Shown here: one piece after another, positions 22,262 through 63,068 of the stretch
Layout of the letters: each line of letters opens with the position of its first letter
Position numbering within the stretch: position 1 is the first letter of the stretch
Origin: Bacteroidales bacterium
GTDB taxonomy: Bacteria; Bacteroidota; Bacteroidia; Bacteroidales; UBA932
Direction of reading: 5' to 3'
NCBI GenBank assembly: GCA_017477245.1
Contig: JAFUWY010000027.1
Location: forward strand, 118,942-182,941
Length of the DNA stretch: 64,000 nucleotides
Translations under genes and position numbers: made by a program
The notes under the pieces: model-generated
The model's database searches: none
Told to the model about the DNA's origin: nothing
Seen by the model: the letters and a program-made list of their open reading frames with translations, nothing else

Positions 22262-22492
22262 TTACTTGATGTGTTTGATGTCTTCGTAGAAAAGGTAGTG
22301 GCCGTCGGCCTTCATGGCCTTGAGCAGCTCGTCCTGGTGGCCGTACATGATGCCTTTGTCACGGATCCTGACCAGGCGCTCGAGGAGTGCCCGTGCCTCC
22401 GGCGTCGCCTCCGGATCGGCACACCGGAAAGCCTGCGCCGACACAGCCAGCGAAGCTCCCAGGGCGAGGATGGATAAGAGGATGCGTTTCAT
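22262..22492 (-). pseudogene. Probable internally deleted GH26 beta-mannanase-like gene
   Basis: Signal peptide plus ADPEATPEARALLERL...KGIMYGHQD (GH26 N-terminal start), then an immediate switch to a short C-terminus-like tail; only 76 aa. Confidence 0.6.
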
Positions 22493-22522
22493 GGTCCCGT
22501 TTCGTTTTATGCTTTTCGACTG

Positions 22523-24310
22523 CTAATAGTGCGTATGGTTGGCCATCGTCTCCTTGAGGAAATCAGGGTCGTCGTTGGGCTTGCCGTCCTTCGGGGCGCC
22601 CGTCCATCCGAAGACCCGGAGCTTGCCGTCCGTCAGGGTGATGACCTGCGCACAGCCGTTCCGCTCGAAGTCGAACACGTGGTAGATGTCGCCGATGCAG
22701 CAGAGCCTGCCCTTGCCGTCCGGCTGCATCAGGAATTTGTTCCAGAAGCAGACGTCCTTGCCGTTGCCGTAGAAATCTCCTTTCCGGATGTCGGGATTGC
22801 CGTTCAGGCCGCTGGCCGGCCAGCGGAAGAGCTGGTTCCCCTCCGCGTCGATCCAGTAGATCTGGGAAAGGAGATAGGGATCCACCTGCCTGTTCCGGTA
22901 GAGTCTCGCCGCGGCTGCGACCGTGGGGAGGTCGTATCCTTCCAGGAAATGCCCCACCTCCATCTGCTGAAGGTGCTCAGCAAACGCGAGGGACTTCAGC
23001 TCGCCGGTGAACGCGTCGCGCACCTGCAGGCCGAGCTCGCAGGCGCCGATGACCACTTCGTCCGTGCCGTCCCCGTCCATGTCGGCGAAGCGGTAGGTGT
23101 CCGCATGGTCGTGGTTGTCATAGATGTCTTCCAGCTTGCTCCAGAGGATGTTGCCCTTGGCATCCACCACCCGGTAGCCGCCAACGATCTCGTCGATGCC
23201 GTCCTTGTCGAAATCGTGGGCATAGAAGTAATGTCCCAGATGGTCTTTCTTCAGGTGCAGCTCGTGTCTCCACACCTCGTTCAGCTCCTTGTCGTAGATC
23301 CCGTAAGTCTGGAACTGCCCGCAGTCGGAGTAGAGAAGCACGCTGGCCGGATACACGCCGTCCGTGTTCGCGACGGCGAGGCGGAAATTGTTGTAGACGT
23401 GCGGATGCGGCGCGCAGGGCCAGGGCGTCCTGTGCAGGACGGCGCCCGTCATGCCGTCGGCCAGCACGAGCCACTCCCCTTCCTCATCCTCTCTCCACTG
23501 GACCAGCTCCGCCTTGCCGTCCCGGTCGAAATCCCAGACCAGGCCGGGACATTCGAAGCCGGAGCGTTCGCGGGTATAGGCCTCCGGGGCCTCCCAGGAC
23601 CAGAGGAGCTTGCCGGCGTTGTCGTACGCATAGGAGGAGTATCCGGGCGAGAACACCACCATGTCCGTCTTGCCGTCCCCGGTCAGGTCGCCGAACTTCA
23701 CGCAGCTGGTTCTCGGCAGGTCGTATTCGCGCAGCTGGGTGATGTAGTCCGGCAGTTGGTTCTTCCTGAGGTCGGCCTCCGTCAGGTTGGGGTTCTTCGA
23801 CAGCACGATGCAGTCCAGCGAAGGGCGGCCCGTGATACGGGTGATCCAGAGCTGGGCCTTTTCCCCCTTCTCCGCCTGGATTGTGGCGGCGCGGGTGAAC
23901 TCCATCCGGTCCGTCGTCCCGAAGATGCCGTCGATGTACGCATCGTTGAGACGGATGCGGAATCCGTCCGTATACTGTCCGTACGTGTGTTGTTCGCTCC
24001 CTATCGCGCGGACATACAGGTAGTACGTCCCGCTCTCGGGATACGTATAGTACTTGAGATAGTTCGATTGCATCGATTCCGAATGCGTCCTGAACAGGAT
24101 GGCGAAATCGTTGTAGAGCCAGTCGACCCCGAGGGACGAAGCGCTCATCATCAGATCGTGACGGGGGATCTCGTCAAGCAGGTCGGAAGCATCGATGATG
24201 ACATCGGATCCGGATACTTTGTACCGGGGGCCGTAATCCACGCCGTCCGCGCTCCTGGAGCAGGACACGGCCGCAAGCAACAATACGGCAACGGCCAATC
24301 TCAATTTCAT
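22523..24310 (-). CDS. Lipoprotein with an N-terminal beta-sandwich and DxDxDG-repeat propeller, PL11 rhamnogalacturonan-lyase-like
   Basis: MKLRLAVAVLLLAAVSC lipobox; repeats FGDLTGDGKTD, WDFDRDGKAE, HDFDKDGIDE and ADMDGDGTDE. Confidence 0.65.
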   Translation of the reverse strand: MKLRLAVAVLLLAAVSCSRSADGVDYGPRYKVSGSDVIIDASDLLDEIPRHDLMMSASSLGVDWLYNDFAILFRTHSESMQSNYLKYYTYPESGTYYLYVRAIGSEQHTYGQYTDGFRIRLNDAYIDGIFGTTDRMEFTRAATIQAEKGEKAQLWITRITGRPSLDCIVLSKNPNLTEADLRKNQLPDYITQLREYDLPRTSCVKFGDLTGDGKTDMVVFSPGYSSYAYDNAGKLLWSWEAPEAYTRERSGFECPGLVWDFDRDGKAELVQWREDEEGEWLVLADGMTGAVLHRTPWPCAPHPHVYNNFRLAVANTDGVYPASVLLYSDCGQFQTYGIYDKELNEVWRHELHLKKDHLGHYFYAHDFDKDGIDEIVGGYRVVDAKGNILWSKLEDIYDNHDHADTYRFADMDGDGTDEVVIGACELGLQVRDAFTGELKSLAFAEHLQQMEVGHFLEGYDLPTVAAAARLYRNRQVDPYLLSQIYWIDAEGNQLFRWPASGLNGNPDIRKGDFYGNGKDVCFWNKFLMQPDGKGRLCCIGDIYHVFDFERNGCAQVITLTDGKLRVFGWTGAPKDGKPNDDPDFLKETMANHTHY

Positions 24311-24377
24311 GTCGGACATAAGATGAAGAGGATAAGTGAGTAAAACCATTCCGGGATTGCACAGTAACTCCCGAATC

Positions 24378-24385
24378 CAAAGATA
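24378..24385 (-). promoter_or_regulatory. Bacteroidetes -7 promoter element TATCTTTG
   Basis: Exact TAnnTTTG match about 70 nt upstream of the ATG at 24310. Confidence 0.6.
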
Positions 24386-24435
24386 AACAATTCTTTACAA
24401 TAATCCGCCCCCCCTTTCGCTCACAATATCCTGCT

Positions 24436-25047
24436 TCACCGGGACGTTTTCTTCTCGATACGCCGGAAAACAAACGGAGTGGAATAAACCTTGCCGGTGC
24501 TACGGTCTCCACCAGGAACGAAATCAAACGTGTAGGTATGTCCCCTCCTGGCGCTGGACTGAAGTTCCTTCCAGATTTGCTCCAGGAACGCTTCGGGACA
24601 TCCTGTCACACGCTTGCCGTAGTTGGTGTGCAGGACTTCGAGCAAGGTCTGTTCCTTGTCTACCCTATTGTCCACCAAGTACCTGTAGATATCTCCGGCA
24701 ACGGATGAAGGTGCATACAGGAACTGAAGGATACCCGTAGGTTCAAGGAAAGAGACATATTTCCTTTTCATCCGTGCATATTCGATCTCGCTGCGCGTAC
24801 TTTCCTCGACATAGCCGTCCACATTGATCACATAGATGGCATCAGCCATGTCGATCTTGCGCTTGTGCATGTCGTCCAGCATCTCCTTGGTCCCCTCGGT
24901 CCAGACCTCGTCATCTCCCGAATGCCCGAAAAGCCCCACGCTGATCACGATGTTCCCCTCAAGCGTCAACCGCTTCTGCGCCTCAAGGAACTGATCCTTG
25001 AAACGTGTGCTTCCACAGAGGGTTATGACGGGGTATTTGCCTTTCAT
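24436..25047 (-). CDS. Hypothetical protein: N-terminal Rossmann-like domain (nucleoside deoxyribosyltransferase/DUF4406-like) plus an unknown C-terminal domain
   Basis: VITLCGSTRF...MHKRKIDMADAIYVINVDGY..ESTRSEIEYA pattern; about 100 extra C-terminal residues. Confidence 0.6.
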   Translation of the reverse strand: MKGKYPVITLCGSTRFKDQFLEAQKRLTLEGNIVISVGLFGHSGDDEVWTEGTKEMLDDMHKRKIDMADAIYVINVDGYVEESTRSEIEYARMKRKYVSFLEPTGILQFLYAPSSVAGDIYRYLVDNRVDKEQTLLEVLHTNYGKRVTGCPEAFLEQIWKELQSSARRGHTYTFDFVPGGDRSTGKVYSTPFVFRRIEKKTSR

Positions 25048-59702: not shown

Positions 59703-59794
59703 GCACCGTGCATATCGTCCCATTCCCTGGACCCATATGCGCATTTTTGGCCATTTTTGCTCATATCGTCCCCTCTTCTGGACCCTTATGCACG
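59703..59794. repeat. 92-bp double-hairpin REP/MITE-like element, copy 1
   Basis: GCACCGTGCATATCGTCCC...TGGACCCATATGCGCATTTTTGGCCATTTTTGCTCATATCGTCCC...TGGACCCTTATGCACG; same length and near-identical to 62880-62971. Confidence 0.9.
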
Positions 59795-61866
59795 CTCCGG
59801 GCCAGCAATTCCAGGATCTCCGGGCCACATTTCTCCCAGAGGCCCGGGCCGAAGCCGGGCACGGCCAGCATCTCCGCGCGCGTGGCCGGGCAGGCGTCCG
59901 CCAGGCCCAGCAGGGTTTTCTGATGCAGGACAATGTATGCCGGTACACCCAGTTCAGCTGCCTTGCGGCGGCGCCAGGCGACCAGGACCTCCACCAGTTC
60001 CGGATGCCGGTTGTCGTTGTAGACATCCCGCGCTTCCTGGGGTTTCCGGCGGGATTTCCGGGCGACGGGAGCTTCGCCCAGCAGGGCCTTGGCGCGGGTC
60101 TGCCGGAAGCGGACGGGATCGAATCCCCCTTCAGCCACTTCATGCAAGGTGTCCAGGTGGGCCTGCCACTGCGGCACCAGGTCCGCCGCAAGGTTCTTCA
60201 ATTGCTTTCCGACCTCGGCGTTGTCCACCTCCACACGGAAGAAGAGGTCGAGTCCCAGCGTTTCGAGCCGCGGGAGGAAATAGGCGCAGGCCTGCCCGAT
60301 ACGCTCTGTCGTCCGGTCTGCATCGTTGCGAAGGGACTGCAGCTGCGAGCGGAACCTGCCGGCGACTTCTTCCGTTTCGGACAGGTCACGCGCCGCCGAC
60401 TCCAGTCTCTCCAGCTGGGCGGGATACAGGCTTCCCAGCGAATCGCGCCAGATCTTCCGCAGGTAGTACACCTCCCGCAGCAATGTCCCGAAACTGAAGC
60501 ACGCGCACTGCAGGGCCAGGGTGAAGGCGGCCCGGTGTCCCGCCAGGGCGTCCGCCACCTGCCCGGGAGCCGGGAAAGCGTCATTGAACGCAGTGACATC
60601 TGCGTCAGAGAGCAGCAGGTCCCGCCGGACAGGCCGGACCAGGGAGATCCCCTCCAGCGTCCGGCAACGGGAAAGGGCCACGTACACCTGGCCGAAGGCA
60701 AAGGCCGAACCGATGTCGATCACCACGTGGTCGAAGGTCAGCCCCTGGCTTTTGTGAACCGTGACGGCCCAGGCCGGGCGCAGCGGGAACTGGCGGAAGG
60801 TCCCCTTCACTTCCTGGCGGATCTCCCCGCTCCGCTCATCCAGGGTATATTGGAGATTCTGCCATTCCTGCCTGTCGACGGCTGTTTCCTCTCCGGAATC
60901 GGCCAGCACGCGCACGATGTCCTCCTCCAAAACGGCGACCGTCCCCAGCTTGCCATTGTAGTAGCGCCCCTCCGGGTCGTTGCGGATGAACATGACCCGC
61001 GCACCAGGCTTGAGCTCCAGCGAAGCAGCAGCCGGGTACAACCCCTCGGGGTACTCCCCTTCTACCAGGGCTTCCAGCCGCGCTGCATCGCCGGGCAGTG
61101 CGGCCAGGCGGGCAGCATTCTCGCTGTCGGCCTGGTGATTATGCGTCGTGAGCCGGATCCAGTCTTCCCCGGCCGGGGCTCCGACCCGTGCATTGATCCG
61201 TTGCAGCATCCCCGCGGATATCCGCGCATCGCGCACGGCGTTCAGGATCTCCACGAAGTCCGAATCCTCTTGGCGGTAGACCTTCTGCAGCTCCAGTGTC
61301 ACATAAGGCAACTGCTGCAAAGCCTTGCTATGGAAGAAGTAAGGAGACGGATAGACTCTCTCCAGGAAAGGCCGTTCCTCCTCCCGGACAACGGGAGAGA
61401 GTTGCCGGGCATCGCCGATCATCAGCAGCTGCACGCCGCCGAACGGCTCGGTACTGCGGCGGACCCGGCGCAGGGTCATGTCCACGGCATCCATCAGGTC
61501 CGCCCGTACCATGGAGACCTCATCGATGACCAGCAGGTCCAGGGTCCTCAGGATCAGGACCTTGTCCTTGCGGAGCCGGCGGTAGCGCTCCGGCATCTGG
61601 TACTCGTTCCTCAACTCCTGGACGTCAGGCAGATACGGACACAGGGGCAGGGAGAAAAAGGAGTGGATCGTACTTCCCCGCGCATTGATGGCGGCGACGC
61701 CGGTCGGCGCCAGCACCACGCATCGCTTGGAGGTCTTCTCTACGATATACCTCAGGAAGGTTGTCTTACCCGTCCCGGCCTTGCCGGTCAGGAACAACGA
61801 CACGGATGTCTCCTCCACATATTTCTCCGCCAGGTCGAACAGCGGATCCCTCTGCAAATCATTCAT
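59761..61866 (-). CDS. Pif1/RecD-like SF1B helicase with a C-terminal HRDC domain
   Basis: GKAGTGKTT, APTGVAA, TIHSFF, IDEVSMV, IGDARQL and AWAVTVHKSQG, VYVALSR motifs; HRDC tail LVAWRR...PAYIV...VPGFG. Confidence 0.92.
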   Translation of the reverse strand: MNDLQRDPLFDLAEKYVEETSVSLFLTGKAGTGKTTFLRYIVEKTSKRCVVLAPTGVAAINARGSTIHSFFSLPLCPYLPDVQELRNEYQMPERYRRLRKDKVLILRTLDLLVIDEVSMVRADLMDAVDMTLRRVRRSTEPFGGVQLLMIGDARQLSPVVREEERPFLERVYPSPYFFHSKALQQLPYVTLELQKVYRQEDSDFVEILNAVRDARISAGMLQRINARVGAPAGEDWIRLTTHNHQADSENAARLAALPGDAARLEALVEGEYPEGLYPAAASLELKPGARVMFIRNDPEGRYYNGKLGTVAVLEEDIVRVLADSGEETAVDRQEWQNLQYTLDERSGEIRQEVKGTFRQFPLRPAWAVTVHKSQGLTFDHVVIDIGSAFAFGQVYVALSRCRTLEGISLVRPVRRDLLLSDADVTAFNDAFPAPGQVADALAGHRAAFTLALQCACFSFGTLLREVYYLRKIWRDSLGSLYPAQLERLESAARDLSETEEVAGRFRSQLQSLRNDADRTTERIGQACAYFLPRLETLGLDLFFRVEVDNAEVGKQLKNLAADLVPQWQAHLDTLHEVAEGGFDPVRFRQTRAKALLGEAPVARKSRRKPQEARDVYNDNRHPELVEVLVAWRRRKAAELGVPAYIVLHQKTLLGLADACPATRAEMLAVPGFGPGLWEKCGPEILELLARSVHKGPEEGTI

Positions 61867-61872
61867 GGTGGA

Positions 61873-61880
61873 CAAAGATA
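61873..61880 (-). promoter_or_regulatory. Bacteroidetes -7 promoter element TATCTTTG of the helicase gene
   Basis: Exact TAnnTTTG match 7 nt upstream of the ATG at 61866, in the short gap after the transposase stop. Confidence 0.6.
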
Positions 61881-61885
61881 CCGGT

Positions 61886-62767
61886 TTATTCTGAATCCTC
61901 CAGCAACCTGGCTGCCGCAGCATAGGTCAGCGCGGTGACCCGGGCCAGCTGGTTGACGTCGCTGCTGAAACGGAAGCGGAGCTGGCGGAGCAGCTCCACC
62001 TGTTCTTCCCGTTCCAACTCTCCGAAAGAAGCCTTTCCGAAAAGCGTCTTGCACAATTCCGGGACAGCCGGCAGGATCGTCTGGTCCCGGAACGACGGCA
62101 GGCCGGTCTCGCCGGAGACGACCCGCTTCCGGGCCTTGGAGGAAGTATGCAGGAAATAATTCATCCGGTTCGGGGTCCGGTACAACTGTTCGACATACCT
62201 GACATTCAGGTAACTGGTCGGAAGCACATACCCTTCCTCGCACAGGAGCCACTCCCCCGGCAGTTCGACGGCGCAGTGCAGCATCCGCCTTTTTGCGCGG
62301 GCGGATATCTCCCCCAGCGGCCTCCCGCCGGCTTTGGCCGGATGGAAGAACGCCTGTCCGCATCCCCAGGGATAATGGGTCGGATGGGAGCAGATATTCG
62401 CAGCGACACAGTTCATCTGGACATAGGCAATGGCTCTCTCCACAGCCTCCCCTTCGTCTTCCGGGATTTCGCGGATATCCACACCGTTCCTCCTGAGGAA
62501 CTCCCTGACCCCGTACTTCCGCTGCAGGTACTTGGCATAGCGCATCTTGTAGCCGTTGACAAATGCAACGACTTCCTCCCTAGTCCCGTACAGCACGAAA
62601 TGGACATGGTTGGACATCAAGATAAAGACGAGTACCACGACGTTTGACAAGGCCACCTGGACAGCCACATAATTCATCCCGACCTTGAAATCATCATCAT
62701 CCCTGAACCACAATCCTTCTTCCAGATGCTCGGTGGTCACGAGCCAGATCTTCCTTTCTTTTTTCAT
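61886..62767 (-). CDS. Y1 HUH tyrosine transposase-like protein (RAYT / IS200-TnpA superfamily) with a C-terminal extension
   Basis: WFRDDDDF, ILMSNHVHFVL (HUH), AYVQMNCVAA (catalytic Tyr helix) and HYPWGC; helical C-terminal tail. Confidence 0.8.
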   Translation of the reverse strand: MKKERKIWLVTTEHLEEGLWFRDDDDFKVGMNYVAVQVALSNVVVLVFILMSNHVHFVLYGTREEVVAFVNGYKMRYAKYLQRKYGVREFLRRNGVDIREIPEDEGEAVERAIAYVQMNCVAANICSHPTHYPWGCGQAFFHPAKAGGRPLGEISARAKRRMLHCAVELPGEWLLCEEGYVLPTSYLNVRYVEQLYRTPNRMNYFLHTSSKARKRVVSGETGLPSFRDQTILPAVPELCKTLFGKASFGELEREEQVELLRQLRFRFSSDVNQLARVTALTYAAAARLLEDSE

Positions 62768-62814: not shown

Positions 62815-62822
62815 CAAAAATA
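62815..62822 (-). promoter_or_regulatory. Bacteroidetes -7 promoter element TATTTTTG of the transposase gene
   Basis: Exact TAnnTTTG match about 50 nt upstream of the ATG, followed by a CCGGTG/CACCGG hairpin. Confidence 0.55.
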
Positions 62823-62879: not shown

Positions 62880-62971
62880 GCACCGTGCATATCGTCCCCA
62901 ACTTTGGACCCATATGCGCATTTTGGGCCATTTTTGCTCATATCGTCCCAAACTTTGGACCCATATGCACG
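62880..62971. repeat. 92-bp double-hairpin REP/MITE-like element, copy 2
   Basis: Direct-orientation copy of 59703-59794 with terminal inverted repeat CGTGCATAT / ATATGCACG. Confidence 0.9.
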
Positions 62972-63068
62972 GTCGGCGGGATGAAGGGTGGCGGAAGGGC
63001 GGAAGGGCGAAAGGGTGGGAGTTGGTGGGACCGGCGGGGCTGGGTGGCCGGGCTGGGGCGACCGGGGC

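Follow-up and report, generated by a model that had tools for sequence, protein, structure and literature searches.

Among the described systems closest to the repeat analysed here is the REPtron, in which the Escherichia coli enzyme TnpA-REP is partnered by REP and BIME sequences (Ton-Hoang, 2012, PMC3333891; Messing, 2012, PDB 4ER8; Corneloup, 2021, PMC8266576). REPINs, in turn, consist of two inverted REPs separated by a variable spacer, reach hundreds of copies, and are reported for RAYT groups 2 and 3 only (Bertels and Rainey; 10.1101/2021.07.10.451892). Within the TnpA-Y1 family, subclass 2.1 is reported to lack REPs and is marked by an 'FQ' variant and a long C-terminal extension matching Bac_DnaA_C or HTH_23/28 (Quentin et al., 2018, PMC6006769); subclass 2.6 comprises ~179-aa proteins from Bacteroidetes that are linked to 'atypical' secondary structures, with Aequorivita, Belliella and Fluviicola, not Bacteroidales, as the listed examples (PMC6006769). 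A further group, the CGTC-tagged REPs, is characterised by a terminal CGTC, stems of 8-9 bp, loops of 4-5 nt and an arrangement in head-to-head dimers, with no transposase association found (Di Nocera et al., 2013, PMC3733652).

The locus described here lies in a 64,000-nt stretch of a Bacteroidales genome (contig C26), which we refer to as the window. Two copies of a double-hairpin repeat, hereafter the doublet, bracket a RAYT-like gene together with a gene for a PIF1/HRDC helicase (Table 1). From the evidence set out below, we put at about three in four the probability that the doublet is a non-autonomous, REP-like tandem-hairpin element, with a T-tract/GGCC/T-tract linker and GTGC...GCAC ends, and that, in an arrangement like that of a REPtron, it is the DNA partner cognate to the ~293-aa RAYT-like Y1-HUH protein encoded next to it.

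Table 1. Coordinates of the two doublets, their parts and the genes between them in the window, and of the tandem arrays found elsewhere in the genome.
Feature	Position	Strand	Description	Basis
Type A doublet copy 1	59703-59797 (95 nt); core 59705..59796	+		
PIF1-like helicase with HRDC domain	59761..61866	-	Between RAYT-like gene and copy 1	
RAYT-like gene	61886..62767	-	293 aa from ATG (295 aa from upstream TTG); N-terminal Y1-HUH domain, H56-V-H58, Tyr117	
TATTTTTG	62815..62822	-	Presumed match to TAnnTTTG; between doublet copy 2 and RAYT-like start	
Type A doublet copy 2	62880-62974 (95 nt); 92-nt conserved core 62882..62973	+		blastn, nhmmer, pairwise identity
Hairpin 1 of copy 2	62887..62917	+	5' arm GCATAT-C-GTCC, loop 62898-62905, 3' arm GGAC-CC-ATATGC (1x2 internal loop)	Arm conservation, cross-family covariation
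Linker GCATTTTGGGCCATTTTTGC of copy 2	62918..62937	+	GC, T-run, GGCC-like core, T-run, GC	
Hairpin 2 of copy 2	62938..62968	+	Polarity as hairpin 1; loop 62949-62956	
Tandem arrays (G000)	C10:400-1100, C14:400-730, C5:56700-57220, C42:124680-125130			

The two copies in the window are 86% identical, and by our own count on both sequences 10 of their 13 differences fall inside two 7-nt variable loop segments. Each copy is built from two imperfect hairpins of ~31 nt, of the form GCATAT-C-GTCC / 8-nt loop / GGAC-CC-ATATGC, that are joined by a linker GC(A)TTTT-GGGCC-ATTTTTGC and enclosed by complementary outer ends, CGTGCATAT and ATATGCACG (the order in copy 2 being ACCGTG CATAT C GTCC-CCAACTTT-GGAC CC ATATG CGCATTTTGGGCCATTTTTGC T CATAT C GTCC-CAAACTTT-GGAC CC ATATG CACGGT). 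Within each type A stem, a 6-bp lower helix (GCATAT/ATATGC) is set off from a 4-bp upper helix (GTCC/GGAC) by an internal loop of C versus CC. A preliminary description of this DNA had already recognised two copies of a two-hairpin element, a bulge in the stems, a closing of the element by a pair of end sequences, and a concentration of differences in the loops over conserved stems, all of which hold at the refined coordinates; the interval that it gave, 62880-62971, has the right length of 92 nt, but the conserved core lies 2 nt further to the right. The two hairpin units are direct repeats, since 21-23 of 23 arm positions match in direct comparison as against 14-17 of 23 with one unit inverted; the units of the sister family introduced below, type B, are too palindromic for such a comparison.

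Copy 2 is situated ~95 nt past the 3' end of a ZIP transporter gene and 108 nt upstream of the RAYT-like start codon, and copy 1 sits just after the hsp20 terminator. The -7 promoter motif of Bacteroidetes has the consensus TAnnTTTG; in addition to the presumed match upstream of the RAYT-like gene, a similar TATATTTG stands upstream of a paralogue on contig C16. Hairpin 2 of copy 1, read as its reverse complement (59761-59796), provides the end of the helicase gene, namely its final 11 codons (SVHKGPEEGTI) and its stop codon. Single-sequence folding of each window copy as ssDNA gave energies weakly but not significantly better than those of shuffled sequences (z = -1.8 and -1.5); with folding energies of single copies marginal, the case for structure rests on comparison among copies.

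Searches of the whole genome assembly (2.38 Mb, 62% G+C, 48 contigs) with blastn and nhmmer recovered 10 full-length copies of type A (E 1e-20 to 1e-49; 88-101 bits), and this and the other copy counts are lower bounds, because an eleventh copy, seen in a rumen metagenome contig, falls exactly where contig C5 breaks. The preliminary description had allowed that the two window copies might be the only ones; at least ten exist. The same searches revealed type B, with 13 copies at 22-41 bits and perfect stems of 11-14 bp (GCA[CT]AACGTCC / 9-nt loop / GGACGTT[AG]TGC). Compared pair by pair, the 10 type A copies are on average most alike in the arms (identity 0.95-0.97), less so in the linker (0.85) and still less in the loops (0.50-0.64), whereas their flanks reach 0.28-0.35. 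As to position relative to genes, which the preliminary description had named as a check, type A copies are all intergenic and close to gene ends, in both orientations relative to the neighbouring genes, and where long ORFs seem to overlap them, as upstream of uvrB, the ORF has been extended spuriously at its N-terminus, the single real overlap being that of copy 1 with the 3' end of the helicase gene. The copies have no replication-strand bias (5/8 and 8/10), the element has no match in Rfam even at E up to 10, and no match to it was found in plasmids or phages; identity with the end of a known IS, which the preliminary description had listed as refuting, thus finds no support in this indirect check. 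The 92-base double hairpin is a genuine DNA repeat with dispersed copies, beyond what chance would produce.

Hairpins of this kind also occur outside complete doublets. Long tandem arrays of a hairpin-plus-linker unit of ~51 nt (GCCAGGGGC...GCCCCTGGC) adjoin type B doublets, and their period of 51 nt equals the unit spacing inside the doublet; the array hairpin also follows the distant paralogue of the RAYT-like gene on contig C7. Truncated relics are present in the same genome at C35:37126-37146, C38:19704-19721 and C44:79213-79274, and comprise two type A half-hairpins, one of them fused to linker-like GGCCCAAA, as well as a type B hairpin that stands alone but keeps its linker.

We next compared doublets across families, using an ungapped alignment of 17 doublets of different families, all exactly 96 nt long. 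In this set, which was gathered with a model that already included the lower stems, the two-hairpin structure pairs 81.8% of cells as against 61.4 ± 1.4 in shuffles, double-change cells number 118 as against 44 ± 5.5, compensatory changes occur in 26 of 31 pairs, and pairing falls to 31-39% in controls with slid partners. Kept across families are the GTGC...GCAC ends, the (C/G)GTCC-loop-GGAC apex, and a linker of the format GC / T-run / GGCC-like core / T-run / GC, which persists between otherwise unrelated stems; the mid-stems, by contrast, have changed in a compensatory manner. A stem imperfection, either a mismatch or a small internal loop, recurs partway down, as C versus CC in type A and as C-A or A-C in several other families. 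Two suggestions of the preliminary description bear on these results. Conserved tetranucleotides at the flanks, for which it had advised a search, are present as the GTGC/GCAC feet of the aligned families; and selection on structure, which it had read from the two copies and would have given up had the stems failed to covary, is supported by strong covariation once related families are compared, but not within type A, where the stems are conserved in sequence rather than covarying. Covariation of inverted repeats fits a hairpin in ssDNA and a palindrome in dsDNA read by a dimer alike, and cannot distinguish the two.

The minimum-free-energy fold of a single copy is one long fold-back, and in the basal pairs of type A long-range pairing (outer with outer, inner with inner) reaches 88.4% as against 84.9% for local hairpins (types A and B), such that the base of type A is ambiguous between local and long-range pairing. 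One long fold-back was nonetheless set aside as the general structure: in the comparison of families, hairpin 1 differs from hairpin 2 and the arms pair within each of them, and we therefore adopt the two-hairpin structure. A closing stem beyond the core was also rejected: positions immediately outside CGTG/CACG gave the impression of covarying, but by hand count only about half of them pair within type A, and a 3-bp closing helix across families, 61% paired, is not claimed.

To place the element in its species, we turned to related genomes and to strains. A full match to type A was absent from the 40 relatives searched, and the GTDB species representatives gave a single match, in a water-deer rumen MAG whose matching locus is 99% identical; this confinement to one species indicates that the copies spread within this lineage. 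The type A motif is present in 23 rumen metagenome contigs, most of which align to the genome at ~88-99% and carry the element at the same loci. At eight orthologous loci, in strains that are 97-99% identical, differences fall at 3/705 arm positions, 7/240 loop positions and 11/285 flank positions; the arms (3/705) thus change ~8 times less than flanks plus loops (18/525; p=6e-5), and are under purifying selection. Hypermutation of the loops was considered and rejected, as orthologous loops differ at about the rate of the flanks (2.9% vs 3.9%); strong loop differences between strains are confined to two gene-adjacent copies, where the whole allele has diverged.

At one locus (C20:14459-14553 of G000), the linker differs from that of the strain contigs L049, L050 and L060 at ~7/22 positions between flanks that are 97-99% identical, and resembles the linker of the C10 copy, which suggests gene conversion between copies; this locus alone inflates the rate of linker differences between strains. 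Every type A locus for which the motif scan returned a strain contig keeps the element (the scan could not return empty sites), and there is accordingly no sign of recent movement among the loci recovered. No clean pair of filled and empty sites was found, the orthologous intergenic region of G014 being too diverged for a precise empty site. At window 22492-24461, where this genome has a 608-aa FG-GAP / rhamnogalacturonan-lyase-like gene, another strain (L065:414-657) has ~240 nt that include a diverged type A doublet.

The protein encoded between the doublets has no match in Pfam at default thresholds, a weak match to Y1_Tnp, and a score of 26.6 bits with the NCBIfam model REP_Tyr_transpos, for which the cut-off is 80; PDB sequence searches returned nothing, and the enzyme is identified by fold search only. 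Its AlphaFold model (pLDDT 86) has as its top PDB match 4ER8, E. coli TnpA-REP with a REP hairpin (Foldseek probability 1.0), followed by the ISDra2, IS608 and IS200 transposases. Homologues number more than 2,100 proteins of ~290 aa, nearly all unnamed, and the motifs SNHVHF (HUH) and AYVxMNxVAA (Tyr117) are invariant in 23 of them. The C-terminal part, ~170 aa, is uncharacterised and has a highly conserved C-terminus that ends in an HTH-like region; a Pfam search with this part of 23 members at E up to 1 gave no domain, and a fold search with a separate model of it gave only non-significant local matches to the HTH of sigma region 4, SorC and DeoR. Given the predicted fold, the gene is best read as encoding a divergent REP-type (HUH/tyrosine) nuclease, RAYT-like, which agrees with the TnpA(Y1)-type enzyme that the preliminary description had proposed. 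A chimeric RAYT-like allele (L058:686-2068) joins an N-terminal part close to the C26 gene (~90% at the nucleotide level) to the C-terminal part of the C22 paralogue (99.5%), and protein P0002 displays the reverse pattern; such alleles reflect either recombination between paralogues or assembly chimeras.

The genome holds nine RAYT-like paralogues, 24-68% identical, each with different hairpins. Type A flanks the C26 gene, and the C16 paralogue, 68% identical to it, has type B doublets on either side. Of the remaining seven paralogues, five have flanking hairpins of their own that make up dispersed families, each of 7-23 units; motif searches for the other two, C22 and C38, gave one place or none. 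Recognisable repeats of their own are accordingly present for 7/9 paralogues, with one gene per hairpin family, and what lies to either side of the gene is a complete doublet rather than a lone left-end or right-end hairpin. Close homologues were found in 11 of 31 genus genomes (22 loci), and at most loci, pairs of hairpins with locus-specific stems lie no more than 300 nt from the gene. Two more distant Bacteroidales contigs have flanking hairpin pairs likewise, and a third (L073) has one clear hairpin with a degenerate second one before it. Of 61 genus genomes searched with a covariance model built from types A and B, 14 gave full-length doublets, several of these doublets being immediate neighbours of the gene, and doublets of ~96 nt adjoin RAYT-like genes in G012, G014, G016, G021 and G046. 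The doublet is present in 7/10 gene-bearing genomes as against 1/20 without the gene (Fisher p=4e-4). Gene and repeat are therefore cognate, the stems co-varying with the protein paralogue. The partnership of element and gene put forward in the preliminary description is upheld, in that the gene, its paralogues and its homologues all have doublets at their flanks, each in its own version; from this pairing we infer the role of substrate.

The helicase encoded between the RAYT-like gene and copy 1 is probably a neighbour that lies outside the unit. One rumen strain (L055:1760-1830) lacks almost all of it (window 59860-61880; C26:178801-180821) and retains ~60 nt of its 3' end, with a junction at a CCGG microhomology; remnant and junction mark this as a deletion, after which the gene is flanked directly by two doublets. 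Another species has a 69%-identical homologue at the same hsp20-gdhA-PPDK_N locus, with no helicase and with a degenerate homologous doublet upstream. Because the helicase is deleted in one strain and absent from the locus of the other species, we treat it as a neighbour, and for the same reasons its role as cargo of a Helitron-like unit is unsupported. In G021 (contig C23), the only other genus genome with a RAYT-like gene just upstream of a helicase orthologue (67% identity, the closest), the pair has a different genomic context and a doublet lies between both genes.

Several other explanations of the doublets have to be weighed against a REPtron-like partnership. Gene and flanking doublets could together form an IS200/IS605-type insertion sequence, with an ordinary transposase and with solo doublets as MITE-like derivatives in which left and right ends are fused. 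The Y1-HUH fold that the enzyme has in common with the IS608 and ISDra2 TnpA proteins fits such an element, as do the hairpins on both sides of the gene, but near-identical gene copies are missing, the paralogues are as divergent as described above and have different hairpins each, and each side carries a complete doublet instead of one subterminal hairpin per end. Moreover, the gene occupies the same hsp20-gdhA-PPDK_N locus in another species (69% identity) and in all strains seen, and a locus so constant conforms to the vertical inheritance expected of a domesticated RAYT. An insertion sequence of this type is, in our assessment, quite improbable.

We also find it unlikely that the doublets are structural or regulatory sites of the host (HTH operators, stabilisers of mRNA ends or nucleoid-protein sites), unprocessed by the HUH protein and spread by recombination or duplication. 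The upstream doublet does lie just outside the promoter-like TAnnTTTG of the gene, copies are near gene ends, the linker is conserved across families, the element is found at every type A locus with a strain contig from the motif scan, and the C20 linker swap points to gene conversion, all of which a host site would accommodate. What weighs against it is that the stems co-vary with the protein paralogue, that the invariant HUH and Tyr residues would argue for retained catalysis, as judged from sequence, and that the flanks of different copies are unrelated (0.28-0.35 identity), which means that segmental duplication was not how type A copies spread. The element could further be taken for the gene of a small structured RNA, or for a family of cis-acting RNAs, in view of its pair of conserved hairpins and the T-rich stretch that follows the first; the Rfam search at E up to 10 without a match, copies in both orientations relative to neighbouring genes, one of which overlaps a coding 3' end, and the tight coupling of the element to a gene for a DNA-processing enzyme make this very improbable.

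Under the preferred reading, that of a cognate partner, the doublet is best seen as the putative single-strand substrate of the RAYT-like enzyme, with binding, cleavage sites and mobility proposed by analogy with TnpA-REP and IS200/IS605 TnpA. The hairpins of the doublet would fold when the DNA is single-stranded, and the N-terminal HUH domain would recognise the stem of its family, together with the imperfection in it and the GTCC/GGAC apex. Cutting could take place at the foot or in the linker via Tyr117, with the metal held by H56/H58, and the ends would be rejoined, whereby the whole doublet might be copied or moved to new positions between genes; the linker, itself conserved, may be read by the conserved HTH-like region at the C-terminus. 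A more far-reaching version, which we offer tentatively and with more doubt than confidence, is that the doublet is the mobilised unit of a large unclassified Bacteroidales Y1-HUH clade with two-part recognition, in which a fast-evolving HUH domain would read stem and mismatch, the C-terminal HTH-like region would read the invariant linker, and the 51-nt unit would also build the tandem arrays.

In common with the REPtron, the locus has a single Y1-HUH gene with imperfect palindromes of its own that occur at its flanks and, elsewhere, dispersed between genes, a bulge or mismatch in the stem, co-evolution of enzyme and hairpin, and an enzyme whose best structural match is 4ER8. It departs from the REPtron in having no 5' GT[AG]G foot, for which (C)GTGC and GCAC(G) stand in all families aligned, in its ~290-aa protein with a ~170-aa C-terminal part without a Pfam match, and in its direct tandem hairpins with a fixed 51-nt period, a conserved linker and 10-20 copies per family. 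As in the REPIN-RAYT systems of Pseudomonas and enterobacteria, a doublet of ~100 nt is the repeated unit, the copies are extragenic, several families share a genome, and each has one cognate gene that keeps the same locus within the species and in a related species (here constant in all rumen strains seen, with hsp20-gdhA-PPDK_N synteny in another species). Unlike REPINs, the doublets have direct units, a conserved spacer (0.85 identity), variable loops and tens of copies. The term REP/REPIN-like, used in the preliminary description, is hence apt for the REP-like behaviour but not under the formal definitions, given the missing GTAG foot, the direct units, the conserved spacer and copy numbers in the tens.

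The RAYT-like protein appears to fit neither of the two TnpA-Y1 subclasses introduced above as they are described. It resembles subclass 2.1 in its HuH motif NHVH, an F-L-R-R segment reminiscent of the 'FQ' variant, and its long C-terminal extension, but has REP-like repeats, and Bac_DnaA_C or HTH_23/28 are undetected by Pfam; with subclass 2.6 it has Bacteroidetes hosts and 'atypical' secondary structures in common, but not the protein length (~293 aa) or, going by the listed examples, the host order, Bacteroidales. Identity with the CGTC-tagged REPs was rejected by comparison with their description. The doublets do contain CGTC, and the tagged repeats occur in Bacteroidetes among other phyla, but here CGTCC is located inside the stem beside a loop of 7-9 nt, and the units are head-to-tail; tag position, loop size and unit orientation all differ. 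Literature searches gave no description of this doublet/RAYT-like family, in line with the preliminary description, which had not recognised it as a described one.

The spread of REPs and REPINs is poorly understood and has been studied almost only in Proteobacteria. The doublet and its RAYT-like gene, from rumen Bacteroidales, add to this known kind of repeat-plus-enzyme pair an enzyme family and a repeat design that are both new; the design is very regular in its exact length, its conserved ends and linker, and its variable stems. The enzyme family to which the doublets belong comprises more than 2,000 mostly unnamed proteins of gut and rumen Bacteroidales. The repeats break assemblies and mark points of strain rearrangement, and are thus relevant to the metagenome assembly of these genomes. 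Nine paralogues, seven of them with their own repeats, in one small genome amount to natural swap experiments on DNA recognition and cut sites; two-part recognition, if true, would be a mode of REP processing unlike that of both TnpA-REP groups studied so far.
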